DNA from: a virus
Lineage: Duplodnaviria > Caudoviricetes
DNA: 63,732 nt
Virus record (IMG/VR): IMGVR_UViG_3300036770_004125
Span: 1 to 63,732 of that record
Strand: one strand, 5' to 3'
This document shows, piece after piece, positions 34,401 through 52,302 of the stretch. The notes under the pieces were generated by a model. That model saw nothing but the letters and a program-made list of their open reading frames with translations, had not been told where the DNA came from and did no database searches. The position numbers and the translations under genes were made by a program. The first letter of the stretch is position 1; every line of letters begins with the position of its first letter.

Positions 34401-34501
34401 TATTGAGATAGAAACTCAGATACAAGAGGATATTCTTCTCTTATAAATTCTGGAAGTTGATTTTCAATAATTGAACTAATTTTAATTCTGTTTTCTAGCA
34501 T
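25481..34501 (-). CDS. g7: Baseplate wedge initiator gp7-like, N-terminal part
   Basis: 3006 aa starting ENQLPEFIREEYP; SKGTEGSFKILF, HSPIIGWAYDGNPIYGPYG, DSDYYQYFSY; follows g6. Confidence 0.8.
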   Translation of the reverse strand: MLENRIKISSIIENQLPEFIREEYPLVSEFLSQYYLSLESQGSASDIIQNIDNYIKIDNLTNLTEFTNLNADLTLFDTEILVDSTEGFPDSYGLLLIDDEIITYTNKTSSSFLGCIRGFSGITSLKDNIREDQLIFTESESSEHLSIVSEEKTKVFNLSILFLKEFFIKIKKQIVPGLENKDFYESLNERLFIKQSNNLYTSKGTEGSFKILFGALYGVIPKIILPRDYLIQPSDAQFRVTQDLVVESVSGDPLELINGTLYQDKDSSGIFSDSRGTISDVKRISRNGKIYYTISLDSGYDKDIDVFGSIKSDFKIHPKTILTSRVFPNLTYLDVDSTIGFPDSGELVVDLNLEGDFETRYIITYTSKVINQFLGCSGIPSIEIPEGTEVKINNYAYGFNSNNEEVRVRITGVISGIDSFNTNAYYEQGDVISIKTLGEDCKGVRENNWFFNISTNYDIKSIEDLSPTQNTNILDLKITLFDNHNFVKGDELEIFFSTNTKYYGIVSEINNSKQIISKVTKINPENEQEFPSLSLASKIRKRISKLNVNQNTVFNSDPDTIETYKTYNTNVQNTYIDFDNSLYVSSSSLPSYLNTPINIDDFSYRFVDVTLPESNEIIVIDSITTGNSNVLNHSYYTGDAIIFRPSPESNIKIDGVGLTTSVYYVKVEDTNTIKLSRSKENIFKENYITITGNLNQSRLELLRFADVNLNSFKLKSQNLFKKITKTELVSDRKETDNGTTGIFVNGVELLNYKSTDKIFYGPIEEIVVTSQGNDYDVINPPQLSVTDLIGTGCNAYCSVIGELKRIDVIDPGFDYIEEPKITISGGNGFGAQAKVRLIDSINSPEFNSQTVDITNNIIDFSEHHRFKNYERVIYTTNNQKSVLGINTNSEYYVSIVDSFKVKLHNSLQDAISGINTVIFYEEGFGVHSFRSTSSNKKISSVEIISSGIGYQNKKTKISGISTASDTLTIVNHGYSDGEIIVYYPQNSPIVGLTSSQSYYVTKISNNEVKLSETGPDNNPQLYFNNKKYINFTINPESFNHYFNYPPITVILNGKVGTSSTLAQEYYGKVVPVFRGKIQSVFVENGGVGYGSPDIINFDRQPSISLLEGSGAQLTPIIDNGAIKKVIIQSPGLNYKGVPDIIINGDGFGAVLVPVVSNGSIVEVKVISGGFGYTQKGTFLSVLVPGNNAKFKSIIKSWRINLVEKYIKKEKIYSDDGIIINGLNGLQYVHLYPSRSLRSSVYLKTSENTNQNYIADLQLDTSNKEINSIIHSPIIGWAYDGNPIYGPYGFASGNSGPIKLMKSGYTKKSTRLFGPSAEIYPLGFFIEDYEFTNSGDLDESNGRYCKTPEFPDGTYAYFSTFTERTGEGPFLNYKTPVFPYVIGNFYRSEQIQFNFNQQTILDETIFGDKKLLRNTTPYNLLNDRSGYEYIPKPFEDKKQDLEVEFTTSGTIDFINIVNPGDDYKVRDPIIFDDGFINGRVTKIKGKNISSITSYTTTTDIFEFYPYEITGEFIGISSVPHNLYNNSLVTLTSKYEYKKVDRIQVIQNTLSLAEDVNDVNVTGFVTSFRIYGDLDFIIKENDLYSIGSEVVKILNVDRVNYQLRVLRSVNSSISTSHSAGDELTSLSRKVIFNTGITSNFHNYRANDEYYFDPKISVGLGLTSGVGISSTLFFSVNAFNTPITIEKGVETTIYFKNQSDISKYSSGGYVDIVNASNVEYNTTRKEIVSIGSTLIKIDFDSSSFPGTVITANLNKWNVLNIPTKSIYLPKNRINTNDKLIYNSYEGSPISISIDSVNSFELESNSVVYAVRLSDDLIGISTQPVSINEDGEVSGIGTTTNSIVYFSGIGTNTYHSFKTDYPNILSGVLSQNISIVSTSEPHELTLEEIVDINVESGISTTIKLIYNEENRRFVVNPRIVEDINLENNTLQISNHKFKTGEKLIYTEDSPIGGLVNNKMYYAVIIDTNTIGLCDNLFESRKELPNLIDLTSLGQGKLSLINPRIEIIKYQDIIFDVSDSSLSYGSGQLSKSAFDLKLFYDKNFKNEFGTFDLIKSGSIGIGSTSTITLKTKNLPNDLYYSLIPIDLLNTPPNKKEIYIDKEQIEHNKILLINSEIQGKQQIIDYTTNTFLFNTTNPVESLVYDSDNSIISYETDSPNTSGGISKVSVNNSKKLYKKVPKVKEIISENGSGAILEIFTSTIGNVSSNNVKIKDIGFNYSLDTTVRPKCIFPSILKILPFNTFDYIEVTSRGKNYISNPDLIVLDGITNEVVDDVQLKYDIDSNKVSIIQNTKGISELEPSIIPINNDNGFLINDIFYDNISKDVTVILEGQYNDPSTFPFSIGEEVLIENVSVESENDKGYNSENYGYRLFKIKTLTPNFGGSGANFTYSLENLLGSEEIPGDYDTRFSKGTVIPKNYLPEFNSNLKVIEFSKDETVVSSNNSGIVKGWDNENNYLKVISNKDFTVGDILVGQSSNVKAIIENIISFDTYLDIKSNATVKQGWKLETGFLNNNNQRIYDSDYYQYFSYSVESPIDINKWNDVVGNITHTSGFKRFSDLLVQDENFNTGISTSQDLGNYYSESVSSEFINFNCVHDFDLVSENYFITNNKIKSNEIYFDSRILQDYIESIGNRVLVIDDISDKFTTTEPRNFQVIDNFELADIRYKKYFVYVYDILDPTRSECLLVSLLHDDVNGFLNQYAIISSEDSLGYFDFQTEIDRFGQLLYYPSITERKIYKYNTFSFGIGDTLVGVGNTTLEIGDIAKIQYVNTIIAENETDPISLPGISTSQRSYKILITISDKEDSYYQFDEISLLHNNTDVLINDYGDLNNTNFSSSHTSGIVTFSSSIESNELVLKLHPSVGVGNSLFVNAIITSIDSTNTTEGSLDILGNDLTSNFISTSMTGGTPEEKLVFNHSTRYSATYNIILIEDKTNNKFEFIEMTTLLNNSIQESLVVEYGVLNFDGSIGEFTSEINNTNGNFELYFTPYEDISYEIKILSSIIGINSQDGVTTV

Positions 34502-37825: not shown

Positions 37826-38593
37826 TCAGATCACACGAGTCTTTTCGTGTCCAACTCTGATACGAGGATCACACCAAATCTCAAATCCTGCCTCTTTTGC
37901 ATCAAGACAGAAAGAAACATCCTCTCCACACATATCCTGAACTGCACCAGATTCAAAGACTTGCATCTTTGGCGCAAACCAAGGATATTCAAGATTTTCA
38001 AAGACTCCATTTTTAATTAGAACCCAACCAAATCCAGTATAATCAACTGTAAATGGTTTCTTTCTCTTTGAAAGACTTTCAACGGTCTCATGATTCATGA
38101 CACCACCATTACTACGAAAATCATCTTCTTCCAACCAGTGAGCAACTGATGAGGTGTGACCATCTTCGGTTGCATACCATCCAGCAGAAATTGGTCTTTC
38201 ATCACCTTCTGCAGGTAGTGCTAGATCGCAAAGTTGCCAGAATTTTTCAGTATTGAATACAATATCACTATCAATCCAGAGTTGATAGTCATAATTCAGT
38301 TTTCCATCCCAAGGAATTTGTTTTGGGCCCCTGAGAACATTCGCCCCGAGTACTTTGCATCTTGCAAAGTTTACCATGGATGAGTAATCTTGTGAGATTT
38401 GAATACTCATACCATTTTGAACGAGATCAAAACAGAGTTGTACGAATGCCTTGAGAAATATAAAGGAACATCCTCGTCCAGGAAGACAGAAGACGATTGA
38501 TTTTCCTCTCATTCTTTCTTTGATTGCATCAAAGTCCCATTCTTGTTCTTTGGGTTTTGGTGCAGTTGCTTTTACAGTGAATCCTTTTGCCAT
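37826..38593 (-). CDS. GT-A fold glycosyltransferase-like protein
   Basis: DxD motif (LWIDSD), TGFGWVLI, GEDVSFC, VGHEK. Confidence 0.75.
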   Translation of the reverse strand: MAKGFTVKATAPKPKEQEWDFDAIKERMRGKSIVFCLPGRGCSFIFLKAFVQLCFDLVQNGMSIQISQDYSSMVNFARCKVLGANVLRGPKQIPWDGKLNYDYQLWIDSDIVFNTEKFWQLCDLALPAEGDERPISAGWYATEDGHTSSVAHWLEEDDFRSNGGVMNHETVESLSKRKKPFTVDYTGFGWVLIKNGVFENLEYPWFAPKMQVFESGAVQDMCGEDVSFCLDAKEAGFEIWCDPRIRVGHEKTRVI

Positions 38594-38642
38594 AAAATTA
38601 ATAAAACCTCAGATCAATTTTAACAGTCTATATATCATTCTG

Positions 38643-38828
38643 TCAATGAGAAGAATTTAGAGAAATCTCTTTATCTAAGACAATCTCCTCATATGAAAGG
38701 TCTGCATTGTCCGTTATAAATCCTGCAAGTTGATTCAGAGAACTCCAGAGATTATTGAATTCGTCCTCATTGAGTGAATGGAAAATGCATCTATTGTCAG
38801 AGTATATGTGATATATTTTCTGTTTCAT
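38643..38828 (-). CDS. Hypothetical protein
   Basis: 61-aa ORF, co-oriented and tightly packed. Confidence 0.65.
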   Translation of the reverse strand: MKQKIYHIYSDNRCIFHSLNEDEFNNLWSSLNQLAGFITDNADLSYEEIVLDKEISLNSSH

Positions 38829-38830
38829 GT

Positions 38831-39013
38831 TTACTTCGTGACTGCATTATATATCATGACGATCAGAAATCCGATGGGCAGTCCGATAATTCTCAGAGTT
38901 TGTTTTGGATAACGAATTAACCACCCAGCAAGCACCGCCCTCCAAAAATTCCAATAGGGGGTTTTTCGTGAATTTTTTTGCCGGGCGATTTTTTTATATA
39001 CAGGGTAGTTCAT
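38831..39013 (-). CDS. Small membrane protein
   Basis: PYWNFWRAVLAGWLIRYP followed by a hydrophobic helix. Confidence 0.65.
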   Translation of the reverse strand: MNYPVYKKIARQKNSRKTPYWNFWRAVLAGWLIRYPKQTLRIIGLPIGFLIVMIYNAVTK

Positions 39014-39255
39014 TTTCTTTTTTCGTTTGATATCTTATGTGTCTTATTTACTTTTGTAGGTTAGGGGATCCATTGATTTTTTATGGGGTCGCATGGGTTT
39101 TTACATTAGCATTACTAATCGTTCACATACTGTCATATAAGACGAACGAATGCATCAGTATCGCTAATGGGTCACACACTGTTACATAAGACGAACTAAT
39201 AGGTATAATTTGCGAGGGTGCTAAGCATAAAGAACTCAGCACCCCTAAGTGTAGC

Positions 39256-39420
39256 CTACTGTCTGTCCAGTTTCTCCTCAATAAAGACCATAAGTTCCCC
39301 GAGGTCAATTCTACAATCCTGCCAGCGAATGGCGGAACCGTACTCACTCAGGAACTCCTCAGCAACGTTGCAGCAGTTGGCAAAGTTGAACGCTTGGGAG
39401 TAAGGAATGGTGCCGAACAT
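39256..39420 (-). CDS. Hypothetical protein
   Basis: Read manually: MFGTIPYSQAFNFANCC...EEKLDRQ (54 aa). Confidence 0.6.
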   Translation of the reverse strand: MFGTIPYSQAFNFANCCNVAEEFLSEYGSAIRWQDCRIDLGELMVFIEEKLDRQ

Positions 39421-39443
39421 GAGAATCAAGAGAGTGTGAAAGT

Positions 39444-39473
39444 GAGGCAGTTTAGTGTCATGCCTCAGGACAG
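39444..39473 (-). ncRNA. H-type pseudoknot motif, copy 1 of 4 (others at 44068-44095, 46607-46634, 46860-46887)
   Basis: TGTC-CTGAGGCAT-GACA-CTAAAC-TGCCTC; stems covary between copies. Confidence 0.6.
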
Positions 39474-39485
39474 AATTTGTAGAAA

Positions 39486-39656
39486 CTAGTACCCTGCCAC
39501 GGCGGCGGCAGTTTCTACGATTGCCTCAGTGCTCACGCCCCAGTGAATATAGGGCGAAGGGCGGGAACCGTTACGCTCCTGATCAGCGGTGATGACCCAC
39601 TTGAGAGTGCGGGTGGCAAGGTCGGAGCAGGGAGTGTAGAGGGCGAAGATCGGCAT
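39486..39656 (-). CDS. Cassette ORF, hypothetical
   Basis: MPIFALYTPCSDLATRTLKWV... (56 aa), downstream of TAGAAT at 39681-39686. Confidence 0.6.
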   Translation of the reverse strand: MPIFALYTPCSDLATRTLKWVITADQERNGSRPSPYIHWGVSTEAIVETAAAVAGY

Positions 39657-39680
39657 CGGTCTCTTGCGGTTGACTCTTGA

Positions 39681-39742
39681 ATTCTACAGGATAGGAGGGG
39701 ATTTGGGAACCCCCCCCTTGTGCCAGTTGTCAGACTGCCACC
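39681..39742 (-). promoter_or_regulatory. Representative cassette promoter: palindrome, GC-rich spacer, -10 box
   Basis: Minus strand AACTGGCACA-N32-TAGAAT with no TTGACA at -35; same layout in front of most cassette ORFs. Confidence 0.75.
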
Positions 39743-39972
39743 CAGTAAGTGTTGACCTGAGTAGGGGTCGCCTCACCGATCTCCCGCTGCTCTGCCATGA
39801 TCCACTGATCACGAGGGCGGGCGGAACGCCAACCCATCAACTGATGGTAGCACTCCTCAAGAGTCCGGGGATAGGCGACGGTGGAGACGATCTTGCCATT
39901 CTTCACCATCGCCACAGCGAACGGGTAGCGGGTGGAGCAGAGGATGGTCTTAAGGGGGGTGGGGTTGGTCAC
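39730..39972 (-). CDS. Cassette ORF, hypothetical
   Basis: 80 aa; stop codon lies inside the palindrome at 39719. Confidence 0.6.
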   Translation of the reverse strand: MTNPTPLKTILCSTRYPFAVAMVKNGKIVSTVAYPRTLEECYHQLMGWRSARPRDQWIMAEQREIGEATPTQVNTYWVAV

Positions 39973-40045
39973 GGGTGGTTCCCTTTGGTTGACTCTTGAA
40001 TTCTACAGGATGGGGGTCGCTTCCGCAACCCCCTCAGTGGGCGGT

Positions 40046-40210
40046 TTAGAAAGCGACCTGAGACCAGTAGAGGTCATAAAGAGCGGCGAGGGTCTCACGC
40101 TCCCGCTGCTGGCGGTAGTGTGCCCAGGACTGATGCTCAACGGGGCGCAGGGCGCGGATGCGGCGGGCGCTGCAGCGCATCGCGTTCTCTGCCCAGGTGT
40201 GGTTGATCAT
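40046..40210 (-). CDS. Cassette ORF, hypothetical
   Basis: MINHTWAENAMRC...; start taken downstream of the -10 box. Confidence 0.55.
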   Translation of the reverse strand: MINHTWAENAMRCSARRIRALRPVEHQSWAHYRQQRERETLAALYDLYWSQVAF

Positions 40211-40292
40211 GGTGTCTCTTGCGTGTTGACTTCTGAATTCTACAGGATGGGGAGACCGTTTCCAATCCCCCCGTGTGCAGGTTAACCAACTG

Positions 40293-40406
40293 TCACAGTT
40301 GACCTTTGCGACCCAGTGCAGCGATCTCAGCAGCGGTGGCGATGAGATCACCCCAGACCCACACCAGTTGGCGGGTGGCGATGTCGCAGGCGGCGGAGAA
40401 AATCAT
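40293..40406 (-). CDS. Cassette ORF, short paralog of 39486..39656
   Basis: MIFSAACDIATRQLVWV... (37 aa); stop codon in the palindrome at 40274. Confidence 0.5.
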   Translation of the reverse strand: MIFSAACDIATRQLVWVWGDLIATAAEIAALGRKGQL

Positions 40407-40475
40407 GGTGTCGTTTGCGTGTTGACTGAATCATTGTAGCAGGTCGGGGGAGGGGGTCAACCCTCCCCGTGGGGA

Positions 40476-40706
40476 TCACGCCCAGGACGGGATCGCCATC
40501 CACGCCTCTGCCTGCCCGATCTCCTCCGCTTCCAGCGCCTCGGCAGCAGCAGCGGGGATCGGGGTGCCAGCATTGAACAGACCCACCAAGATGTCCAGCA
40601 TCACGCCATCATCCCAGCAGTAGCGGTGGTCAATCTCAACCTGGATGCCCTCCCAGAAGGCGACGAAGGCGGGGAAGTCAAAGCAGGTCTCGGTGGTGAC
40701 GGTCAC
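40476..40706 (-). CDS. Cassette ORF, hypothetical
   Basis: 76 aa, GTG start after a TACAAT box. Confidence 0.55.
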   Translation of the reverse strand: MTVTTETCFDFPAFVAFWEGIQVEIDHRYCWDDGVMLDILVGLFNAGTPIPAAAAEALEAEEIGQAEAWMAIPSWA

Positions 40707-40776
40707 GGGTCGCGTTGCGTGTTGACTGAATCATTGTAGCAGGTGGGAGGGCACCGTTGCGGGTGCCCTCTGGGGA

Positions 40777-40956
40777 TCATCCCCCCATCGCCTCTTTAAG
40801 GGCATCGTATGCTGCCAGGTAGTGGTCAGCGTCTTTGTAGTTGCCCTTGATTTGTTCCTCACAGGCAAGGGAAAGCACTGCAACCCGGATGGTGTCCCAC
40901 TTGCCCTGGGGAAGGGTGATGGTGGCGGGGGTGGCGGGGTTCCAGGTGGCGGTCAT
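40777..40956 (-). CDS. Cassette ORF, hypothetical
   Basis: Read manually: MTATWNPATPATITLPQGKWDTIR...EAMGG (59 aa). Confidence 0.6.
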   Translation of the reverse strand: MTATWNPATPATITLPQGKWDTIRVAVLSLACEEQIKGNYKDADHYLAAYDALKEAMGG

Positions 40957-41029
40957 GAGGTCTCTTGCGTTGACTTCTGAATTCTACAGGATGCGGTGGG
41001 GGATCTGAGTCCCCCCTTGTGCCAGTCGC

Positions 41030-41326
41030 TCAACCGTCCACCAACTGCCTAGCGCACTCCTTCATAATACAAACTGCGCCAGCGAGAGTAGGATAGTCTC
41101 CGCATTCTCTCAGGAGTTTGGCACTCTCAGCGGGGACAGGAATTGAGATAGCATCCCAAATCTCAAGCGGAATGTCATTAAAATACTTTTCCTTTGACTG
41201 CTCCAATCGGTGAATTCCGATGTTATTGATCAACCGCAGTTTATGCGCGTTAGTGACAAACTGGGCGTAGTATGCACGATGGACTTGATGACCGCCAGTG
41301 GCAAGATACTCTTTGCGGGTGATCAT
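41030..41326 (-). CDS. Cassette ORF, hypothetical
   Basis: MITRKEYL...HRAYYAQFV...FNDIPLEIWD. Confidence 0.7.
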   Translation of the reverse strand: MITRKEYLATGGHQVHRAYYAQFVTNAHKLRLINNIGIHRLEQSKEKYFNDIPLEIWDAISIPVPAESAKLLRECGDYPTLAGAVCIMKECARQLVDG

Positions 41327-41398
41327 GGTGTGGGTTCGTTTGAACTGAGTCAATTGTAGCGGGTCGGTGGGGGGATCTGAGTCCCCCCGTGTGCCAGT

Positions 41399-41566
41399 TT
41401 AGGCAGTGACCTCCATCCACTCTTGATCGTTGCAGAAGATCACGATGGGGGCACCGTGCAGTTCCACCGACCAGTCGAAGGCAACATCGACTGCGTGATC
41501 CTCAGAGGTGAAGAACTCACGATCCTCGGGGGATGCCTTGGGGGCAGCAGACCAGGAAACGAACAT
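41399..41566 (-). CDS. Cassette ORF, hypothetical
   Basis: MFVSWSAAPK...AVDVAFDWSVE. Confidence 0.6.
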   Translation of the reverse strand: MFVSWSAAPKASPEDREFFTSEDHAVDVAFDWSVELHGAPIVIFCNDQEWMEVTA

Positions 41567-41639
41567 GGGAGGAATCCCTGACGACTCGATCATCCTACAG
41601 CATGGTGGGCACCGTTGGGGGTGCCCAGTTCACAAACTG

Positions 41640-41888
41640 TCACATCATCGAAACAACCCGCATGATGGTAGAAACCTGCACCGGAGTTTGCCACCCGATT
41701 ACATCTTCCAACATGTTGTTGTCGGGTCTGATGATAGCAACCTCAAAAGTGTCGTTTTCGATGTTACCGTACAGACCAGAACCTTTCGGACCTGAAACTA
41801 CACTCACTGCCCACTTGTTGGGGAAAGTGTGCAGTGCAACCGTAGCACCTTCGATAACATGATCCCGAAAGTTCAGAGTGGAGAACAT
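41640..41888 (-). CDS. Cassette ORF, hypothetical
   Basis: MFSTLNF...FPNKWAVSVV...GLYG...TFEVAII. Confidence 0.7.
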   Translation of the reverse strand: MFSTLNFRDHVIEGATVALHTFPNKWAVSVVSGPKGSGLYGNIENDTFEVAIIRPDNNMLEDVIGWQTPVQVSTIMRVVSMM

Positions 41889-41959
41889 TGTCCTGTCCGA
41901 TTGACTGAAACAACTATAAGGGGTGGGAGGGGGCAGTGTGCCCCCCAGGTGGACACCTA

Positions 41960-42277
41960 TCAAACTGTCACAAGATCCTGCCAGGCACGGTAGGTTTCAG
42001 TAACCTTGCGGGCGAACTTGATCAGTTGAGGATAACCCTCAGTGCGACACCAAACATAACAAATTTGAAGAAAGTTCCAAACTTTCGTGAGAGTTTGAAT
42101 GGTAGCATCCTTGCCACCTTGCTGATACCATTGAACAAACTTTTCAGTGAGAACATAAACAACGGCAGCGATGGTGAGAATAATGGTCACAAACTGTTTC
42201 AGGAGTTTGTGATAATCAACCTTTGAAAGTTGCTGAATCAGGGCATCAGCGGGCGGGAAGTTGGCGGTGGTTTGCAT
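41960..42277 (-). CDS. Cassette ORF, membrane-anchored hypothetical protein
   Basis: MQTTANFPPADALI... with one hydrophobic segment; stop codon in a palindrome. Confidence 0.65.
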   Translation of the reverse strand: MQTTANFPPADALIQQLSKVDYHKLLKQFVTIILTIAAVVYVLTEKFVQWYQQGGKDATIQTLTKVWNFLQICYVWCRTEGYPQLIKFARKVTETYRAWQDLVTV

Positions 42278-42426
42278 TGTTCTGGGGTGGCGAGGGAAAA
42301 TGTAGAGGCGTCTCAACCACCCCCATAAGTTACCAGCATCGTGGGCGATCCGCAAGGGGGTCTGTGCCAGTTTGGAAAGTGGCACAGTGGTGGTTGCCAG
42401 GGGGTCGTGGGGTGCTATGATATGTT

Positions 42427-42535
42427 CATAAGCAAAGGGGAGCGGGGGCGCCGCGATGATACAAACCAAGTCACTCACCCTGCCTTAAAATAAGTTAGTA
42501 TAAAGTATAAAAAAAGAGGGCGATTGTGCCCTCTT
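42427..42535 (+). ncRNA. Candidate small RNA, copy 1 of 5 (others ~43160-43268, 44741-44848, 45717-45826, 48792-48899)
   Basis: + strand -10 box 29 nt after a palindrome; AAGGG...CCCT closing stem; AT-rich tract; terminator hairpin. Confidence 0.55.
42509..42535 (-). terminator. Rho-independent terminator (similar hairpins near 43241, 44825, 45798, 48872)
   Basis: AAGAGGGC-ACAATC-GCCCTCTT followed by a T tract on the minus strand. Confidence 0.8.
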
Positions 42536-42543
42536 GATTATAT

Positions 42544-43002
42544 TCACCAGAGACCTTCGTTCACCAGGCGATTGTAAAGAGTGTTAGCAAGTTTGCCGCA
42601 GTGATCACATGCCTTAGCGTACTTAATCTCAGACTTGAGAGCATACTTATCGGTGGTTTTGTAACCGCCGAACTTGTAACGATGTACTGCACTTACCAGT
42701 TTGAGCAGTTGGCGCTTTTTCAGATCTTCGCCCGCCATTTTATAGATGGGGATGAAGAAACGATAATCCTTAATTTCACGGCACTTGGCAAGTTTGTCAA
42801 CGATAACCTTAGATTCTTTGCCCCCAAAATAGGGAGTAAGTTCAACCATCAGGAAAGCATTGAAAGGTGCCAGTTGATCTGCCTTTTTCTTTTGATCCTC
42901 TTGAATCTCATTCAGTGCCTCACTGATAGTTTCAACACTCTTGAGAAAACTATCCTGCAGTTGCTGCAGTTGGGCGGTCAGAGTTTCAATGGTCGCAGTC
43001 AT
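42544..43002 (-). CDS. Cassette ORF, hypothetical (coiled-coil N terminus)
   Basis: MTATIETLTAQLQQLQ... (152 aa). Confidence 0.7.
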   Translation of the reverse strand: MTATIETLTAQLQQLQDSFLKSVETISEALNEIQEDQKKKADQLAPFNAFLMVELTPYFGGKESKVIVDKLAKCREIKDYRFFIPIYKMAGEDLKKRQLLKLVSAVHRYKFGGYKTTDKYALKSEIKYAKACDHCGKLANTLYNRLVNEGLW

Positions 43003-43271
43003 GATAGACTCTTGGGTTGGTGGTGGGTCGGGGCGTTTCGTTTCCCCCCGATGCACATAAGATACGGCAGATTCCGGGGCACCACAAGGGGGTGTGTGCC
43101 AGTTCAGAAACTGTCCCCTAAGACGGTCTTAGGGGTGCCCGATGCCTTACAATAAGATCACAAGGGAAGGGAACGCGGGCGGCGTGATGATACAAACCAA
43201 GACACTTACCCTGCGATAAAATAATACAATTATAAAGTATAAAAAAAGGGGGCGATTGTGCCCCCATTTGA

Positions 43272-43409
43272 TCACTCTTCAGGGCCATAAGCACACTCCA
43301 GAGAGTATGCTTCCAGTTCCTGATCATCCTCATAATAGGATGCCCAATCCTCCTCGGTGGGGATATACTCCTCGTCAATCTGCTGGTAGTCGGTGAAGGA
43401 ATAGGTCAT
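43272..43409 (-). CDS. Cassette ORF, highly acidic peptide
   Basis: MTYSFTDYQQIDEEYIPTEEDWASYYEDDQELEAYSLECAYGPEE (45 aa). Confidence 0.6.
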   Translation of the reverse strand: MTYSFTDYQQIDEEYIPTEEDWASYYEDDQELEAYSLECAYGPEE

Positions 43410-43479
43410 GGGGTGTTCCCTTGGTTGACTCTCTTAGATTAGGGGATGGGGGGTGGAAAGTCAACCCCCCTGTGCCAGT

Positions 43480-43719
43480 TCAGAAAGCGACCAGTTGATC
43501 AATCTCCCACTGGGGGACAGTGTATACTGTGCCGCCGCAGTTCTTTTTCAACCACGCATTGATGTGCTTAGTGGTGGTGGTGCTGTAGGACTGCTCAGTC
43601 CGCATCCAACCCCGACCAGGCACCAGTGCCGCAACTGGGGTGCTGTAGGAGAACAGAACGCAGGTTCCGTTTGCCAGTTCAACCTCAGTGCTGGTGGTGG
43701 TGACTTGATTGACTTTCAT
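43480..43719 (-). CDS. Cassette ORF, hypothetical
   Basis: VLFSYSTPVAA...YSTTTTKHINAW. Confidence 0.75.
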   Translation of the reverse strand: MKVNQVTTTSTEVELANGTCVLFSYSTPVAALVPGRGWMRTEQSYSTTTTKHINAWLKKNCGGTVYTVPQWEIDQLVAF

Positions 43720-43798
43720 GGTTCTGGTGGTGAACTGAGATCATTATAAGGGCACCAAGGGAACCACTGCGAGTCCCCTTGTGCCACTTGTCAGGGTG

Positions 43799-44035
43799 TC
43801 ACACTGCGGCGAGTGCTTCCACGGGGATCAGCACTTGCTCGCGGATCCAGCGGTGATAGGTTTGACCGATGGATGCCTCAGGATTGCTCAGGAAACTAAT
43901 CAGTTCCTGCTCATCATCAGTGACAAAATTATACACAGCATCAGGATTGCTCCGGAAAGAAACCTTAACATCCTGACCATCAATCTCAACGGAAGCGATG
44001 GCGGAAGATTGAGACTCGGTGAAAGTGAACAGCAT
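43799..44035 (-). CDS. Hypothetical protein, KTSC-like start
   Basis: SSAIASVEI...VSFRSN...YNF. Confidence 0.6.
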   Translation of the reverse strand: MLFTFTESQSSAIASVEIDGQDVKVSFRSNPDAVYNFVTDDEQELISFLSNPEASIGQTYHRWIREQVLIPVEALAAV

Positions 44036-44341
44036 AATAGAATAAGACCTGTAAGGTTTGTAAGATTGAGCAGTTTAGAGTCTTACTCAGGACTGTTTAA
44101 TCTTACGATTCTGCCCAGAGTTGGTGAATCTTACTCATGACATTGCTATAGTCATCAATGGGATCATGTTCATCATCCTCGCAAAACTCACGATTGTTTG
44201 CGACCAAAGAGTAGATCAGATCCCACTCAGATTCAGTAAAGAACTCTTTGATGGTTTGACTCATGGGGTTCGTTTGAACTGAGGTTATTGTAGGGGGTGG
44301 GGGGATCTTATGGCATCCCCCCTGTGTCAGTTTCTAGAGTG

Positions 44342-44614
44342 TCACACCCCCATCAGAATGGCACGGATGCGGTCACGCTTGCGGGGAGGATTGACCAGAC
44401 TCCAGCGGTTGCGCTGGAGTCGCTGCCCGTGGCGCTTCATAGATGCCCACAGGATGCCCTCTTGCTCCATCTCAACCATAATGGCATGGATGGTGCCCTT
44501 GTGGGAGCGGGGATCCATCCCCAGCATCCACACCAGATCGGAGCAGGTCGTCTCGGGGTTCACCGCCAGCACGGCACGGATGCGGGAACGGATGGAGGAG
44601 TTCAGGGAGCGCAT
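44342..44614 (-). CDS. Small basic protein, possible winged-helix DNA-binding fold
   Basis: IRAVLAVNPETTCSDLV...IHAIMVEMEQEGIL...RNRWSL. Confidence 0.55.
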   Translation of the reverse strand: MRSLNSSIRSRIRAVLAVNPETTCSDLVWMLGMDPRSHKGTIHAIMVEMEQEGILWASMKRHGQRLQRNRWSLVNPPRKRDRIRAILMGV

Positions 44615-44856
44615 TTGGGGTTCGTTTGAACTGAAGTCAGTATAGGGGGCAGGATGGGGGCAGTGCTGGGGTCGGTGTGCCAGTTCATAAGGTGGCACAG
44701 CAGGGTGGCACAGTGCCCCATGATGCCCTATACTAAGATCACAAGGGAAGAGGGAGCGGGGGCGCCGCGATGATACAAAACAAGACACTTACCCTGTCAA
44801 ATTATATTATTAGAATTATAATGAAAAAGAGGGCGATTGTGCCCTCTTGTTTATAC

Positions 44857-45591
44857 TCAGGCGGTCACGAGTTTCTTACTGTAACCGCTGAACTGTTTGT
44901 TAGCACGACGGGCGCGAATCGCCTTGCCCCATTCAGAACCTGCTTTCTGAGTTCCGTGTACTAACAGCGCAAACGGTTTGTCACCAAAACAGTGAGAATC
45001 GTCGTGATCAACTTCCAAACCTGCGGCGTTAGCATCATCATCCGTCATAAACACTTTGCTATAACGGGTGAAGAATCCTTCATCAATTAGATGATCCCAC
45101 TTGCCACCATAGGATGCGGTCAGGTAGAAGTTGGCAGGCAACTTAAAGTTGAGAAAGAGTTGCAAACTCTTGCTGTAGCAATAGAATTTCAGATCAGGAT
45201 TGCGGTGAGCAACTTCAATCCAGGCATCCAAATAAGCACCGGAGAAAAAGTCACCAGACTCGTGAATCCGCACGAGTTTGGTATTTTTAGTGCGATGATG
45301 TTGGATGCTGTCGTTGATCAGATCCGCAGCAGATCCATTCTGGATTGCATCAACAATCATCTTAAGATTGCTGGCACGATTCTCAAAAACCGCATCATAC
45401 TGCACCTCAGATGATGCAGCAAAACAACGAAACTCGGTGTGTTCGCCATCTTGAATGGTGCGCTTTCCGTTAGCATCAACCACGGCAAAACTCTTGCAAA
45501 ACATAGCACCGGGGCAAGTCTTGCCAGCGGGCAGGTTGAAGATCAGAGTTTGCTTGCCGAGTTTGGCGTTACCTTTGGAAAAGTTCAGCAC
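44857..45591 (-). CDS. GP88-like phage protein
   Basis: GNAKL...FNLPAGKTCPGA..C, VRIHESGDFFS, FYCYSKS. Confidence 0.75.
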   Translation of the reverse strand: MLNFSKGNAKLGKQTLIFNLPAGKTCPGAMFCKSFAVVDANGKRTIQDGEHTEFRCFAASSEVQYDAVFENRASNLKMIVDAIQNGSAADLINDSIQHHRTKNTKLVRIHESGDFFSGAYLDAWIEVAHRNPDLKFYCYSKSLQLFLNFKLPANFYLTASYGGKWDHLIDEGFFTRYSKVFMTDDDANAAGLEVDHDDSHCFGDKPFALLVHGTQKAGSEWGKAIRARRANKQFSGYSKKLVTA

Positions 45592-45829
45592 GGGAGGAAT
45601 CCCTGACGACTTCCATAAGTTACAGCAGAATCAGCACCAGTGCCAGGGTGTTGTGTCAGTTTGGAAAGTGGCACAGCGACTGCCCAATGGTGCTGGCGAT
45701 GCCTTAGAATATAGGAAAGAAAGAAAGGGACGGGAATCCCGACGACGACAACTTATAAGTAACCTGCCCTACCATAAAATAATCTAATATAAAGAATAAA
45801 AAAAGGAGAGTATAACTCTCCTCTTTGTG

Positions 45830-46018
45830 TTAGAATTCAATCTCCCAATCAGTGTCCCGATTCAGATTGACCCAGAAGTGGTATTTGTGATTCATGGATG
45901 TAACAAATACCTTGTCACCTTTGTTCTGTTCAATGATAACTTCATCCACAGAATCCATCAGGTTAGCAAACCGATTCTTTGCTTTCTTAGACTTAGGAAT
46001 GACAAATGCGGTTTCCAT
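45830..46018 (-). CDS. Cassette ORF, hypothetical
   Basis: METAFVIPKSKKAKNRFANLM... Confidence 0.65.
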   Translation of the reverse strand: METAFVIPKSKKAKNRFANLMDSVDEVIIEQNKGDKVFVTSMNHKYHFWVNLNRDTDWEIEF

Positions 46019-47287
46019 GAGAACCTCATCAACAGTGGTAGTATGGCAGGGGATCATGAGAATCACAACCCCCATTGTGCCAGTTTGGAAAGTGTCACAT
46101 CAGAAGACCATTTCTTCCAGTGTGGGTTGATCTTGCATTGCATCAGCATAACCACCAGCGATGTCAGCATCAACATCAGAATCAAAATCGCTCGTGATTG
46201 TGTCAAGAATTGACAGAATCTGTTCGCCATTCTGACCAGCGCGAAGCATACCGAGAAGCATTTCTTTAGTCATGATAAGAAAGAATAAGATGGTAAGGTG
46301 TGTAAGATGTGTAAGACTATAAGATTATCAGTTTCCGTCAGATTCTTCAGAAACTTCCACGACTTCAATCAGAGGAATGGGAATCCCATCAGGAGTCCAT
46401 TGAATGAGTTCAGATTCAAACAGAATGTCAAACATGATCAGAAGTCGTTACCAGAGTTGAGAAAGTCAGCGAAAGAAGCATCATCATAAGAATCCTCATC
46501 ATCATCAAAGATGGTAGGATCCTCTACCAATGCCTCATAAGGATCGTAATACAGTTCTTCGGTGTAAGCAGTCATGAGAGTGAGTTGCGAACAAAAGAAT
46601 TATAGCAGGCAGTTTAGAGACTTGCCTAGGTCTGATGTGCCAGTTAATCAGATGGCACTCGTGCCCTTGCTGACCCAGAGTGCCAGTCGCATCGTGCTCG
46701 CTTTCTTCACGGATTGCGAAGGGCGACCAGTAGCGTGGGCGAAGGCTTGCAGATCTTTACGGGTCACATCGGACACCATACCGATCAGAATCTTACGGGC
46801 ACCAGTCAGGAGTTGCTGTTGAGTCATGGAAGTTCGGTGTTGAACAAGAGAATTGTAGCAGGCAGTTTAGAGACTTGCCTAGGTCTGGTGTGCCAGTTGT
46901 CAAAGTGTCCTTATGACCTACTTTCCATAAACTCTGCCCAAGCATTAGCATCTGACTCAAATTGAAACAGAGCAATGCCTCCACCCATTTCTTCATCTAT
47001 AACCTGATACCATTGCATCAGAACTTCATTGTCAAGATGATAAACAGAATCAACAGAAAAACGAGGTTCAGTCATTGAGATAAGGTTCACGGAGGTCTTC
47101 TACGAATGCAAGTGCCTGCATCAATTCAGGGTCTTCATACTGTCTCCATTGTTTCAATGAATCCATTGCCTCTTGAATTGCGAAATGAATGTATTCAAGT
47201 TTTTCGTAGTCAGTCATGAGTTTCCTCAGGAACAAATACAATGTAGTAGGGATCTTATGAGAACACAAGACCCCTTGTACCAGTTTC

Positions 47288-47713
47288 TCAACTGTCCATT
47301 TTCACATGCTGCTCCAGAATACCATAAACATCATCAGAACCAATGAATGTGCCATCTTTCTTATAATAAGAAGTGCTACATTCAACACCAGAACGAGAAT
47401 CAATGGTAGCAGAATTGATCTCCATGATGTTAGAAGTCATCACAGGAAGAAACTGATCAATCAACCAATCCCACACTTCACTGTTGCTATTGAGTTCTTC
47501 AGTGTCACATTCAATCAGAAGTTTGCCACCACTGATGCGAACATAATCAGCAAAGTCTAGATCAAGGTTATCATTAGAATCAAGACCATAAAACTCAAAG
47601 ATAGAGTTTTCCTCTTGCACACAACGAACAGAAAGTCCATCCAGATAGGATTGAAGATCAAAATTGTCAACAACTTCACACTTAGCGGTGGCAACAAATT
47701 GAGTGTAGGACAT
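47288..47713 (-). CDS. Hypothetical acidic protein
   Basis: 141-aa ORF; stop codon inside the palindrome at 47276. Confidence 0.65.
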   Translation of the reverse strand: MSYTQFVATAKCEVVDNFDLQSYLDGLSVRCVQEENSIFEFYGLDSNDNLDLDFADYVRISGGKLLIECDTEELNSNSEVWDWLIDQFLPVMTSNIMEINSATIDSRSGVECSTSYYKKDGTFIGSDDVYGILEQHVKMDS

Positions 47714-48912
47714 AGTGGTGTCTCAGGAAAGAAGTTGGGAAAAGTTGTCAACAACAATTTGGCAGGCAATTCTTTGAACTTCATCCATTTGCCCCTCATC
47801 ATCAAACTGTGTTGCGAGAAGACAAATCAAATCCTCCTGGATTTGTTCACGGACAGAAAGAAGATCCGTTTGAGAAAGTGACATGGTGGTGTCTCAGGAA
47901 CGAATGTAATGTAACAGGAATCTTGGGGTCTTACAAGGTCTGATGTGCCAGTTTCTTAAGTGTCCACAGATACAACAAATTGACTCCTAAGTGATTGAAT
48001 TTAAACACAGCAATCCAATCAGGAATCGTCCTTCTTTTTGTTATTCATCTGTGTCACTTTTGATTTATTATGTCCTGTTTTATTGCGCCGGAGACAGGAA
48101 TACCAACTCCCTCTTTTATAATAATCATAAGAACACATAATGCATGTAAGAATCTTAATTCCTTATCAGATTGACTCTTTATCCCGTAGGAGAGTTCAAG
48201 TGCTGATGATAAGAATTATGAATTCTTATGATTTATTTATAAAATTATATCTTACATAAACTCCATCAGATAGTAATCAACTGTAATCTCCAGTTCTGCT
48301 GCCTTCTGTTCAATATCTTCTCCTGTGAGTTCCATAACCCAATAGGAGAGCATCTGCTGTTCTTCGGAGGTGAATTCCATGGGTTTCAGTGGTTACAACC
48401 TATCTTCAAAGGGGACAAACCTAGTCTAGCAGGAATCTTAGAGTCTTGTCAAGCCCCCCCCCTCAGAGTGCCATGACAAGAGTGGTTTCTCTATCTTCAC
48501 CAGGAAGATCTTGGAGTTTCTGATGAATCTTATCAAACTTATTGGCAAGATTCCAATAATAAGCAGATACATGAGTATCCTGACCATTCTTTTGTGCCTG
48601 TTCTTCTCTTACATACAGAACATGCATAATGTCCAGAATCTCACCAGAAGTCAAAGAAATAGAAGTCATGGGGTCTTTGTATGACTCTGATATCTTAAGG
48701 GTCTTCCTGGCGATCCTAGGCACCTCTCAGACAGTTTCCAAAGTGGCACAGCATCTCCACATGAGACCCTGCCATGCCTTAGAATATGATCACAAGCAAA
48801 GGAGGTCTGGGGTAAGACCTGATGTAAACCATCGCCACCGCCCCTGCAATGAAATAATTGTAAATAAACATAAAAAAAGAGTGCCCATAAGACACTCTTA
48901 TATTTGGAATTC

Positions 48913-49317
48913 TTATACTGCCAATGCTGCCTCAGGAATCTCTACAATCTCTGGGTACTTATCCTCAAACTGGTGCATATGATAGCAGATCCATTCACCA
49001 TCCTTATAAAGATATGCATATTCTTCACCATATTGAAGATACATATCCACACTGGGATCAAGACGAGGAGGACAATCTTCACCCCGTTGAGAGTAGTATT
49101 CAGGGCCATAAGTTCCATCAGCACTATCATCCCAACGTGATTCAGTCCAGCAAGAACTCATATCTCCACCATCAATGAGTTCTTCTACCTTTTCCTGAGT
49201 ATTATAGTGGGTCTTGAGAATACGACCCAACCACTCAGGATAACCATCCCAGTGATGATACACAGAAAGCACAGATTCGTCGGAGAGTTGAATACCAATG
49301 CGAGAACGAGTTGCCAT
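48913..49317 (-). CDS. Phage hypothetical protein
   Basis: MATRSRIG...SVYHHWDGYPEWLG...LIDGGDMSS...EEYAYLY. Confidence 0.8.
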   Translation of the reverse strand: MATRSRIGIQLSDESVLSVYHHWDGYPEWLGRILKTHYNTQEKVEELIDGGDMSSCWTESRWDDSADGTYGPEYYSQRGEDCPPRLDPSVDMYLQYGEEYAYLYKDGEWICYHMHQFEDKYPEIVEIPEAALAV

Positions 49318-49384
49318 GAGAGTTCAGTGGTGAACGAGTTCAGTATAAGGTGGATCTGATGGGTCTGAAGGGTCTTATGGACAC

Positions 49385-49639
49385 TCAGTAAAGTGTCACA
49401 CAAGCACCCAGACGAACCTGAGTATAACCTTTCTGCCAACGGATTGCTTCACCATTGACATGATGAATCCCATAGTAATACCTACGGGCATTCGTCTCAC
49501 TCAGACCCAGATGATCCGCCATTCGCTTAAAGGAATGAGTAGGATACAGTCTCTTATAAGCATTGGTCATCTCAGTCCAAAACTTAGCATCTTTGGTAAA
49601 ATTGATGCTGTTGGTGGGATGAACCTTGACAGTTTTCAT
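49385..49639 (-). CDS. Small HTH-like protein
   Basis: SFKRMADHLGLSETNARRYY fits a helix-turn-helix pattern. Confidence 0.6.
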   Translation of the reverse strand: MKTVKVHPTNSINFTKDAKFWTEMTNAYKRLYPTHSFKRMADHLGLSETNARRYYYGIHHVNGEAIRWQKGYTQVRLGACVTLY

Positions 49640-49754
49640 GAGGTCTCTGATGACGACTCGTTTAATATAAGGGAAATCTGATGCCTGTCCAGGGTCTTAT
49701 GTGCAACTTTTTGAACTGGCACACATAAGACCTTCTGATGCGTAATTTATGTTA

Positions 49755-49916
49755 TTATAGAGAAAAATCCTCTACATAAACCTCAACATTCTCTGCTGGT
49801 TCCAGTTGAAATAACTTATCAAAATCAATCTGACGAGCATCAAAATCAGGAAATACATCAAATTCCAGTGTTACTCTGACTTTCTTTTTTTGTGCCTGAA
49901 GAAATGCGACTGACAT
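49755..49916 (-). CDS. Hypothetical protein
   Basis: MSVAFLQAQKKKVRVTLEFDV... (53 aa), downstream of a canonical promoter. Confidence 0.6.
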   Translation of the reverse strand: MSVAFLQAQKKKVRVTLEFDVFPDFDARQIDFDKLFQLEPAENVEVYVEDFSL

Positions 49917-49948: not shown

Positions 49949-49977
49949 AGTATAGGGTATTATGAGGCGGTTGTCAA
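49949..49977 (-). promoter_or_regulatory. Sigma70-type promoter
   Basis: TTGACA-N17-TATACT. Confidence 0.8.
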
Positions 49978-50060
49978 GTGGTAATATTTAGGACATAAGA
50001 AAAAAGACCCGAAGGGGTTTCACTGCTCCCCATCAGGTCTTCGTGCCCACCAACATAAGA

Positions 50061-50089
50061 ATCATAAGGCATCGGAGGTATTCTGTCAA
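50061..50089 (-). promoter_or_regulatory. Sigma70-type promoter
   Basis: TTGACA-N17-TATGAT. Confidence 0.75.
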
Positions 50090-50099
50090 CTGGGCGGGG

Positions 50100-50500
50100 T
50101 ATTATGAGATCTTATGTGTGAGTTTGGAAATATTTGGAGTCCTTATGTGTATTTTTGTGTCGGAGTCTTATGATTTTTTGCGGGGGTCTTGACAAAAAAT
50201 GGTCAGCGTGTTAGGATAAAACATCCAAGATCACATAAGAATCTGGTGTTTTTTATAAGAACTCAGTGTTTTTCATAAGAATGTCGGTGAAATCTAATAA
50301 GTTTCATAAGAACTCGGTGTTTACTGATGTTTTTTATAAGAATTCATAAGAACCATCAAATGTGTAAGATTCATCAGAACCATCAGATGTGTAAGATTAT
50401 AAGACTATAAGATTATAAGAATGTAAGATCATAAGAACAATTAGAATCATAAAGACTATATGATCCATAAGACTTTATGACTGTAAAAACATAAGCAACT
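50100..50500. repeat. Non-coding array of short (CA)TAAGA repeats, origin-like
   Basis: Many ATAAGA/GTAAGA copies at 50230-50495; reverse-complement CTTATG copies at 50110-50172. Confidence 0.7.
50189..50217 (+). promoter_or_regulatory. Sigma70-type promoter firing into the TAAGA array
   Basis: TTGACA-N17-TAGGAT with an extended TG. Confidence 0.7.
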
Positions 50501-50582
50501 TTTCCACAACTACTAATTTATCACGATTTGCCCACAAAGTTTCTCATACTCTGCCCTATATAAAAAATCGTAGGGCAATCCA

Positions 50583-51119
50583 ATGAAAATAACATCACGG
50601 AAAGTATCAGAAATTGAAGGTCTAGAGAATTATAAAGACTACTTCGTTACAATTAAAGGAGAAGTCTATTCTTCAAAGTATAATAAGATTCGTAAGTTAA
50701 AACCTTGTTACCTTACTACAAAAGGTTCTTATCAGATTGTTCGTTTATCTGATGGTAAGGGTAAAACAAAGAACTTTTATGTACATAGACTCGTTGCACA
50801 ATTGTTCTTATTAAATGTAAATGAATCTTGGGCAGTAGAACATATCAATGGGGATCTTGAAGATAACTCTGTTGACAATCTAAGATGGGCAGGTAGAAAA
50901 ATATCTAAAGATTCTGATGAGTTGGATAGTGAAAGAATCTATCTTGGTGATGACATCAGTAATTACATTAAACTTGTTCATTCTGCCTCAGTGCAAAAGG
51001 GAATCCCAGTACCAGGAAAACTTGAGTTCTTTCATGGTATGATCAATCAGGCAATGGAAGATTATATTAACAGATTTGGTCTAAAGAAGACAATGTACCA
51101 GATAGAGCATTCTTCATGA
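50583..51119 (+). CDS. NUMOD4/HNH endonuclease-like protein
   Basis: YFVTIKGEVYS...VHRLVAQLFL...VEHINGDLEDNSVDNLRW; the only convincing + strand gene. Confidence 0.8.
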   Translation: MKITSRKVSEIEGLENYKDYFVTIKGEVYSSKYNKIRKLKPCYLTTKGSYQIVRLSDGKGKTKNFYVHRLVAQLFLLNVNESWAVEHINGDLEDNSVDNLRWAGRKISKDSDELDSERIYLGDDISNYIKLVHSASVQKGIPVPGKLEFFHGMINQAMEDYINRFGLKKTMYQIEHSS

Positions 51120-51572: not shown

Positions 51573-51657
51573 AAGAGTTTGTTGCGTATGAGAGTATTAT
51601 AAGGTGCTGGTGAGAGTGGTGGTGATGTGACTGTGCCACTTTTCAAACTGGCACATT

Positions 51658-52302
51658 TTATTTTAGCGAATAGATGTAGATATGTTTACCTGGAGTTTGA
51701 ATATATTGTGCTTCACCAGATTCAAGAGCATCTTTGACTCTTTGAGCAAATGGTTTTAATTTCTTGTTTCCATGAGTATCTACATGATAAGTACGAATAC
51801 ACTTATCATGATAGATCTTACCATTATAATCTATGACTCTACCTTTTGCAGTAAGACCATGATATTCAAAATTTGATGCTTTATAAATCGTTCCTTGATG
51901 ATTATGAAATGTATCTGCATAAGAAATTACCATTTTATAATTGGTATTTCTTTTTAACCATTTTAAAGTTTTACCAATAAAAAAAGATTCGGTATTTCTT
52001 GGAGTATGATCAATACAGCAAAGGCGACGGAGTTCTATAATTTCACTTTCAGAATCTACATATTTCTTCCAGGTGTTCGCCATTCCAAGGGGGCCGTAGA
52101 TCATTGCTCCGATCAGTTCATGATCATGAAATAAACCAAAAACATGAGAAATGCGTAGACCATTGACACTCGATGAATAATGCCATTTTTCCACAAAATC
52201 CCTGACATATTGAATTGTAGTTGGTTTTACTACAAAATCCTTGACATTTGCATTTCTACAATCAATATCTTCATAAAGTAGGGATGATAGTGGATTCAAC
52301 AT
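51658..52302 (-). CDS. Mom-like (GNAT-fold) DNA base-modification protein
   Basis: VEKWHYS, ELRRLCC, RNTESFFIG, VISYAD...HQGTIYKASNF. Confidence 0.75.
   Translation of the reverse strand: MLNPLSSLLYEDIDCRNANVKDFVVKPTTIQYVRDFVEKWHYSSSVNGLRISHVFGLFHDHELIGAMIYGPLGMANTWKKYVDSESEIIELRRLCCIDHTPRNTESFFIGKTLKWLKRNTNYKMVISYADTFHNHQGTIYKASNFEYHGLTAKGRVIDYNGKIYHDKCIRTYHVDTHGNKKLKPFAQRVKDALESGEAQYIQTPGKHIYIYSLK

Follow-up and report, generated by a model that had tools for sequence, protein, structure and literature searches.

Multicopy intergenic units of freshwater T4-like cyanophages: a candidate small-RNA gene family in promoter-terminator cassettes

The DNA considered here is a 63.7-kb virus fragment (IMG/VR record IMGVR_UViG_3300036770_004125, positions 1 to 63,732; hereafter the window) in which five intergenic units, each preceded by a palindrome-like element, recur on the plus strand between small genes. 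These units are a real, non-random, conserved and apparently undescribed multicopy element. Judged by sequence, they are most likely a small-RNA gene family set in PeSL-like cassettes of freshwater cyanomyoviruses, PeSLs being modules that join a promoter to a stem-loop. A more specific reading leads those considered but is proposed tentatively: the five loci would be genes of a new multicopy family of small, trans-acting, non-coding RNAs of freshwater T4-like cyanophages, held within promoter-terminator cassettes between small early ORFans. The part of this reading that makes the units transcription units is, from their promoter-like and terminator-like features, probable. The window itself is a piece of a freshwater T4-like cyanomyovirus genome. 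Its T4-type products include the portal protein, which shares 72-80% identity with its counterparts in Synechococcus and Prochlorococcus myoviruses (Kyanoviridae), together with tail sheath, large terminase and baseplate wedge proteins; completeness is estimated at ~30%. All long open reading frames (ORFs) of the window are on the minus strand, and the units are situated in a small-gene region at 38-64 kb, where most genes have no family match.

The units were first noticed as five palindromes, each followed on the plus strand after exactly 29 nt by a hexamer of the -10 type, and the coordinates, the spacing and the hexamers are all confirmed (Table 1). The word palindrome is exact for three of the five copies, but the right half is degenerate in copy 2 (CTGTCCCC) and the left half in copy 5 (TCAGACAGTT). 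Further downstream come the other described parts: the internal hairpin (P2), a CCCT(G) segment, an AT tract and a hairpin that belongs to the terminator of the converging gene as well. The motif common to copies 1-3 is likewise there. The distance from the -10 hexamer to the A-run of the terminator is nearly constant (93, 93, 95, 93 and 92 nt in units 1-5). The AT tract, 27-33 nt long and 87-91% AT, starts 55-60 nt downstream of the promoter. The five 3' hairpins are the top five minus-strand terminator-like sites listed for 38-57 kb, each with a T-run behind it on the gene strand, as predicted from sequence; on the plus strand, three of the five pass a terminator test.

The units are multicopy throughout the stretches searched. 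Neither the region nor unit 2 has a BLASTN match among 50,697 phage records, and homologues surfaced only through sequence patterns and a covariance model built from eight units. A pattern drawn from copies 1-3 matches in five IMG/VR contigs; a broader pattern adds five further contigs, one of which holds nine units in 5.8 kb. The covariance model recovers exactly the five units in the window and nothing else full-length, and gives five to nine matches in each of four IMG/VR records. Two complete 258-kb genomes have five full-length units clustered at 143-151 kb, with one weaker match on the reverse strand, and other contigs hold additional copies. In an isolate, Synechococcus phage B3, the model finds seven units (E 1e-12 to 2e-4), all of them in unannotated gaps and oriented against the annotated genes; in S-SCSM1, S-SM2 and Bellamy it matches only with its terminator part. 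The combined search yields 45 matches, 41 of them distinct, in 14 stretches (143 kb) taken from the window, six IMG/VR phage contigs and phage B3. Wherever orientation was checked, the units run opposite to the strand with the most ORF length.

Searches for a prior description return nothing that resembles the units. At the gathering score, Rfam 15, including its wcaG, manA, glnA, PhotoRC and abiF families, has no match in the window or in five related loci, and at E ≤ 10 the window gives only chance-level matches of the small nucleolar RNA type. A literature search confined to main texts finds no description, and the genome announcement of phages B3 and B23 makes no mention of the units (PMC7171214).

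The case for transcription comes mainly from the region upstream of the unit body. A TAnnnT hexamer stands 58-80 nt upstream of the CCUGC anchor of the core in 38 of 44 distinct units, mostly at 61-66 nt, and in three of the six units that lack it inspection by eye places the hexamer just beyond the search range. Within the hexamer only T1, A2 and T6 are invariant, which is what a -10 element would show. The same body follows at least three upstream arrangements: the palindrome of the window, a second palindrome (GATAAGC-N3-GCTGATC) and, in some units, TTGACT-17-TATACT. The strongest sequence argument is that different promoter types precede the same body at the same distance, so the body is probably transcribed in the anti-gene direction. 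The second palindrome takes the same position as the first, ~30 nt before the -10, at six units of related phages (L042:2495, L019:1501, L024:2723, L061:2659, L061:6981 and L062:3329), and the window contains no good copy of it. The proposal of a multicopy conserved family with promoter features at a fixed distance is thus borne out at the level of sequence.

P2 is a hairpin of 4-6 bp, and its pairing is conserved while its sequence changes. Across the 41 distinct copies, 93.6% of alignment cells pair, and all four pairs vary on both sides; the closing pair is GC in 18, AU in 10 and GU in 8, and the innermost pair GC in 20, CG in 17 and UA in 2. None of 500 shuffles reaches the covariation score of P2, and slid controls pair in 37-57% of cells (P2 and terminator taken together). 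The alignment behind these values was fitted to the model, which favours structure; an independent check is given by a plain MAFFT alignment, from which RNAalifold predicts the same four pairs unaided. An unbiased scan of column pairs also recovers P2 and nothing else convincing. Covariation across homologues, on which the original prediction had staked its structured RNA, is thus present for P2.

The rest of the proposed structure fares differently. The pairing of the 5' AAGG(G) segment with CCCT appears in the minimum free energy folds of window units 1-4, but across the family only 59% of cells pair, with one pair formed in 12 of 40, and the 5'-3' helix is rejected at that level. The description of the units as structured RNA holds for P2 and the terminator and is overstated for the remaining body, which folds no better than shuffles (z -0.71 to +0.21); the z values of whole units (-1.7 to -4.6) are due to the terminator. 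Other candidate pairings are not supported: a second small helix, CARGA with UCCUG around GACACUU, has one pair in only 6 of 23 and little covariation, and alternative pairings of the 5' strand of P2 with CCUGC show none.

The body without structure is nevertheless conserved in sequence. It includes a core of ~30 nt, GAYRAYAYAAAAC..GACACUU..CCUGC, with only 13% G, which is kept while the P2 stems differ, and the AT tract behind it holds the conserved words (A/U)AUAAU and UAUAAAG(A/U)AUAAAAAA. A body no more structured than its shuffles suits a binding site. The leader ahead of P2 is 83% purine (A 62%, G 21%, C 13%, U 4%), and the body is thus asymmetric between the strands in its composition. 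In the tentatively preferred reading, each unit would be read against the genes from a host-type promoter (a TAnnnT -10, often with TGC before it) whose palindromic element also serves the next gene's promoter, the two standing back-to-back. The predicted RNA of ~115 nt would consist of an A/G-rich, U-poor leader, P2, a G-poor unstructured stretch of ~30 nt, an AU-rich tract and a hairpin that would terminate both the unit RNA and the converging mRNA. The conserved unstructured stretch would be the working part, binding a phage or host partner in trans (either RNA or RNA-binding protein), and the several copies may supply dosage early in infection. An RNA that acts in trans, by base-pairing or protein binding, is favoured because trans-acting small RNAs are usually laid out in this way, with a conserved, G-poor, unstructured stretch beside an AU tract and a terminator, and because the core is conserved across phages that differ in stems, terminators and neighbours, which a terminator, an insulator or a stretch of homology would not need.

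A more elaborate version of the small-RNA reading is speculative and rather unlikely. It makes the units a new class of phage regulatory RNA, present in many copies and belonging to the early-gene promoter class, whose A/C-rich core and mRNA-leader-like 5' end would soak up a factor of host or phage that binds RNA, such as a translational repressor or a ribonuclease acting on early mRNA leaders. The timing or stability of early expression would be set in this way, and each ORFan acquired would bring a copy with it, since the units are part of the shuffling cassettes. Operator mimicry of RegA, gp32 or gp43, a CsrA-type GGA sponge and Rho binding are conceivable roles that carry no weight here; cyanobacteria are not known to have Rho.

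The units have no coding frame in common. The short frames are those listed in the original prediction: MIQTKSLTLP, MIQTKTLTLR, a read-through in copy 3 (which runs to 64 aa), ATG-TAA in copy 5 and no frame at all in copy 4. The accompanying statement that no ORF is conserved across the units extends to the family alignment. A micro-peptide like MIQTKSLTLP, or a start-stop mini-ORF, as the product of the units would draw on the ATG directly behind P2 in several relatives and in copies 1-3, where a purine-rich stretch resembling a Shine-Dalgarno site precedes it. Many of the 41 distinct units have lost the start or have a stop immediately after it: the ATG is absent from unit 4, L019:2488, L039 and L066:1071, and an immediate stop is found in unit 5, L032, L037 and L061:6040. 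With frames of 1 to 64 codons, and neither start, frame nor stop conserved in the family alignment, the micro-peptide is rejected as a candidate and may be given almost no weight.

The purine-rich leader and the AT tract also bear on an R-loop or priming element, in which the transcript would hybridise to the DNA through these two segments and prime replication, as at T4 origins, or start recombination. Purine-rich leaders favour stable RNA-DNA hybrids, and the order of a promoter and then an AT-rich tract resembles T4 oriF and oriG, which combine a promoter with a DNA unwinding element. The tract in the units is short, however; it also supplies the converging terminator with its U-tract region and runs straight into the terminator hairpin; five to nine clustered copies within 6-7 kb are unlike a replication origin, and such an element has no need of a covarying hairpin and a conserved core. 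Moreover, MotA-dependent middle promoters drive transcription at the T4 origins. The motA gene is absent from cyanomyoviruses, according to the portion available of PMC2984593, and the R-loop explanation is very improbable.

Several results weigh against a trans-acting RNA, and they concern the direction, the expression and the partners of the units. P2 alone leaves the strand unfixed: the sense hairpin is the more stable in 30 of 41 units, yet G-U pairs number 5 in sense against 4 in antisense among 32 distinct hairpins. Seen from the gene strand, P2 and the U-rich segment complementary to the leader look like a second, weak terminator, and P2 of units 4 and 5 is flagged as such. By the terminator test, two of the five window units have no T-rich tail on the plus strand. 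The copies of one genome have near-identical stretches in common, so part of the conservation may reflect recombination between copies rather than selection on an RNA. None of the RNA runs searched contains the sequence, and they thus give no evidence of expression. As to partners, the covariance model finds no host homologue (E < 0.1) in five freshwater Cyanobiaceae genomes; the complement of a 14-nt core has 41 matches in 34 of 121 Cyanobiaceae genomes against ~54 for the reversed control, and so is not enriched; and the start regions of 80 window ORFs pair no better with the cores than with shuffled cores. Neither short seeds nor protein partners would be picked up by these target tests. 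When the units are paired with the leader of their divergent neighbour gene, unit 5 ranks at 0.5% of shuffles and unit 3 at 4%, and the other three are not significant; this pairing is given no weight, as G-rich and C-rich leaders meet by composition alone.

The host searches also count against an anti-defence decoy, such as an RNA that mimics a host CRISPR (clustered regularly interspaced short palindromic repeats) repeat or an antitoxin RNA. A small, hairpin-bearing phage RNA that is multicopy, probably expressed early and devoid of coding capacity would fit such a role. The 29-nt core pattern of the window type has no match in a set of 185,579 prokaryote species, each represented by a single genome, however, and the five Cyanobiaceae genomes are without a model match; in these searches, made with the core pattern and in those genomes only, no similarity to a CRISPR repeat appears. 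The sequence of the hairpin is free to vary between copies, unlike that of a mimic of a single repeat. A decoy is thus hardly to be expected, ranking just below the R-loop.

Table 1. Predicted features of the five units of the window (positions are those of the window; P2, internal hairpin)
Feature	Position	Strand	Remarks
Unit 1, upstream palindromic element	42363-42386		Shared with the minus-strand promoter of gene 41960-42277
Unit 1, -10 TATGAT	42416-42421	+	TGC directly before; TTGCCA 16 nt upstream
Unit 1, predicted RNA, ~116 nt	42428-42543	+	P2 42442-42454, core 42455-42483, AT tract 42484-42513, two-way terminator hairpin 42514-42535; ends placed 7 nt after the -10 and 8 nt after the hairpin
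Unit 2, upstream element	43095-43118		Right half degenerate
Unit 2, -10 TACAAT	43148-43153	+	
Unit 2, predicted RNA, ~114 nt	43160-43273	+	P2 43173-43185, core 43186-43214, AT tract 43215-43247, terminator hairpin 43248-43265
Unit 3, upstream palindromic element	44676-44699		
Unit 3, -10 TATACT	44729-44734	+	
Unit 3, predicted RNA, ~116 nt	44741-44856	+	P2 44756-44768, core 44769-44797, AT tract 44798-44826, terminator hairpin 44827-44848
Unit 4, upstream palindromic element	45652-45675		
Unit 4, -10 TAGAAT	45705-45710	+	
Unit 4, predicted RNA, ~118 nt	45717-45834	+	Divergent copy; P2 45731-45741, core 45742-45772, AT tract 45773-45799, terminator hairpin 45800-45826
Unit 5, upstream element	48727-48750		Left half degenerate
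Unit 5, -10 TAGAAT	48780-48785	+	
Unit 5, predicted RNA, ~116 nt	48792-48907	+	Divergent copy; P2 48803-48820, core 48821-48847, AT tract 48848-48876, terminator hairpin 48877-48899

The palindrome-like element upstream of the units recurs across the small-gene region. The pattern GTGYCAGTT-N5-RNTGKCMC, with at most two mismatches, has 33 matches on both strands, equal to 22 sites, where shuffles lead one to expect 0.19; with the element of unit 5 added by hand, the set comprises 23 promoter regions, each marked by an element of 22-24 nt. On the gene (minus) side, 22 of the 23 sites have a TAnnnT hexamer 29-32 nt from the element, after which come ~20 nt of leader and then an ATG, and the element therefore belongs to early-gene promoters. 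On the plus side, the hexamer lies at exactly 29 nt in six of the 23 sites (those of the five units and the site at 49723); with a background frequency of TAnnnT of 0.0196 (plus strand, 38-63.7 kb), the probability of at least six of 23 at one offset is 4e-6. TGC(C/T) immediately before the hexamer is common to the plus-side and the gene promoters, and weak -35-like hexamers are present at window promoters. The spacer of the gene promoters, between palindrome and -10, often holds a G-run/C-run stem-loop. The palindrome pattern also has 18 matches in phage B3 and none in S-SM2. The element looks like the binding site of a dimeric regulator, and together with the spacer stem-loop it looks like a cyanophage version of PeSL promoters.

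Two further observations concern the same element. In the form GTGCCAGTT-N-TGGCAC it precedes the -10 of almost all small early genes by 29-32 nt (39720-63629, 23 sites; for example 44324-44345, 46077-46098 and 51633-51654). The sixth plus-side hexamer, TATTAT at 49752-49757, has no unit behind it and points into ORF 49755-49916 from the wrong side.

In other T4-type phages, ORFans are flanked by PeSLs (promoter-early stem-loops), modules of a promoter and a stem-loop that undergo recombination among themselves, as set out in the portions available of PMC2839356 (Arbiol et al. 2010) and PMC4122927 (Comeau et al. 2014). The window cassettes are like them in recurring between the genes of ORFan-rich variable regions in T4-like phages, with an early promoter of the host type, here predicted, and a terminator stem-loop; G-run/C-run stem-loops inside promoters and the possibility of recombination between copies are common to both. 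An adjacent terminator stem-loop is predicted at each of the five units from its hairpin and T-run, and many copies lie between ORFans of a hyperplastic region, five in the window and up to nine in 5.8 kb elsewhere. The cassette of the window differs in its size (~230 bp), in its second, opposed promoter and in its conserved body of ~90 nt with a covarying hairpin. As far as PeSLs are described in those portions, they include no anti-gene transcription unit, and their promoters have -35 boxes and AT-rich upstream regions in place of a 24-nt palindrome 29 nt from the -10.

This likeness underlies the main competitor of a trans-acting RNA, a purely cis-acting cassette for regulation and recombination, in effect an enlarged PeSL. 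The cassette would comprise a strong two-way terminator, a weak back-up terminator made of P2 and its U-tract, and back-to-back promoters; the anti-gene promoter would only insulate or stimulate the neighbouring early promoter, through transcription collision or local supercoiling, the RNA would be a by-product, and the repeated sequence would serve mainly as homology for shuffling ORFan genes. Consistent with this, the units lie between small ORFans of a variable region and only where there is a strong terminator, the gene content between them differs among phages that retain them, P2 and its U-rich tail have the form of a gene-strand terminator, and the stem-loops between palindrome and -10 of the gene promoters are placed as in PeSLs, in the available part of PMC2839356. 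Freshwater-metagenome contigs of relatives (DNA runs X6 and X7) also join 42372 to 44319, 47278 to 49394 and 42493 to 43232, skipping the genes between; the first two joints are at or near palindromes and the third links the AT tract of unit 1 to that of unit 2. Cassette shuffling would give such a pattern. However, the joints have sides of only 20-34 nt that fall on repeated motifs in metagenome contigs, and being unreliable they are a hint only. A 4-bp stem is weak as a terminator, and neither terminator, insulator nor homology requires what is seen in the family: a 30-nt core conserved across phages with differing P2 stems, terminators and flanking genes, and a -10 whose distance from the body stays the same with each of three promoter types. 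A cassette acting in cis alone is on balance unlikely, while standing well ahead of the R-loop, decoy and peptide explanations. The RNA-gene and cassette readings are compatible, as one cassette can both shuffle genes and make an RNA.

The surroundings of the units show several other features. G+C content is 26-37% in the structural module (the 1-36000 side), reaches 57% at 40-42 kb and drops again, making 38000-46000 an unusual compositional island within a single phage genome; across the small-gene region G+C is ~27-33%, rising to the same maximum. A non-coding stretch of ~0.5 kb (49990-50520) is dense in (C/T)ATAAGA(A/C) and GTAAGAT repeats and may be an iteron-like or regulatory region; three near-consensus promoters of the sigma-70 type (TTGACA-17-TATGAT and similar) fall at 49949-50217, inside the repeat-rich stretch, and TAAGA words recur in the gaps at 44040-44100, 46270-46330 and 48120-48260. 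The sole sizeable plus-strand ORF of the region (50583-51119) encodes a protein with an HNH_3 endonuclease domain, and a second endonuclease-type protein, with NUMOD3 motifs, is encoded at 61696-62634. A Mom-like DNA modification protein (51658-52302, minus strand; Pfam Mom, E 2.5e-38; PHROG 1384) is found among the early genes. In the baseplate and tail region, two giant minus-strand ORFs (13076-20608 and 25481-34501) encode proteins of 2510 and 3006 aa. A scan of the window for transfer RNAs and transfer-messenger RNAs gives none.

Multicopy families of trans-acting small RNAs are exemplified by Qrr1-5 and the cyanobacterial Yfr2-5. The window units share with them, as predicted from sequence, a promoter of their own, a length of ~100 nt, a conserved single-stranded stretch, an AU tract by an intrinsic terminator and several diverged copies. 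The units differ in that all copies lie tail-to-tail with protein genes, with which they share terminators, and in that they have no similarity to any Rfam family. The RNA elements described in cyanophages are CfrI, PhotoRC-II, wcaG, manA, glnA and abiF, all of which except CfrI are Rfam families (portions available of PMC9964418 and PMC2984593). CfrI of cyanophage S-PM2 is, like the units, a non-coding element of a T4-like cyanophage that is oriented against genes; in the available part of its description, it is a single antisense RNA of ~225 nt that overlaps psbA and a homing endonuclease gene, whereas the window units are intergenic, multicopy and ~115 nt long (PMC2984593).

Should the units be transcribed, T4-like cyanophages would have their first described family of multicopy small RNAs and, to our knowledge, the units would be the first promoter-terminator shuffling cassette with a conserved anti-gene RNA of its own. 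Even if they act only in cis, they would extend the PeSL idea to cyanophages, where PeSLs had been judged unlikely in the portion available of PMC4503421. The proposal is directly testable, as phage B3 and its host are in culture. If true, it would provide a handle on early expression in cyanophages that are without the Alt, Mod, MotA and AsiA proteins of T4, and would point to the upstream palindromes as elements that resemble regulator binding sites.

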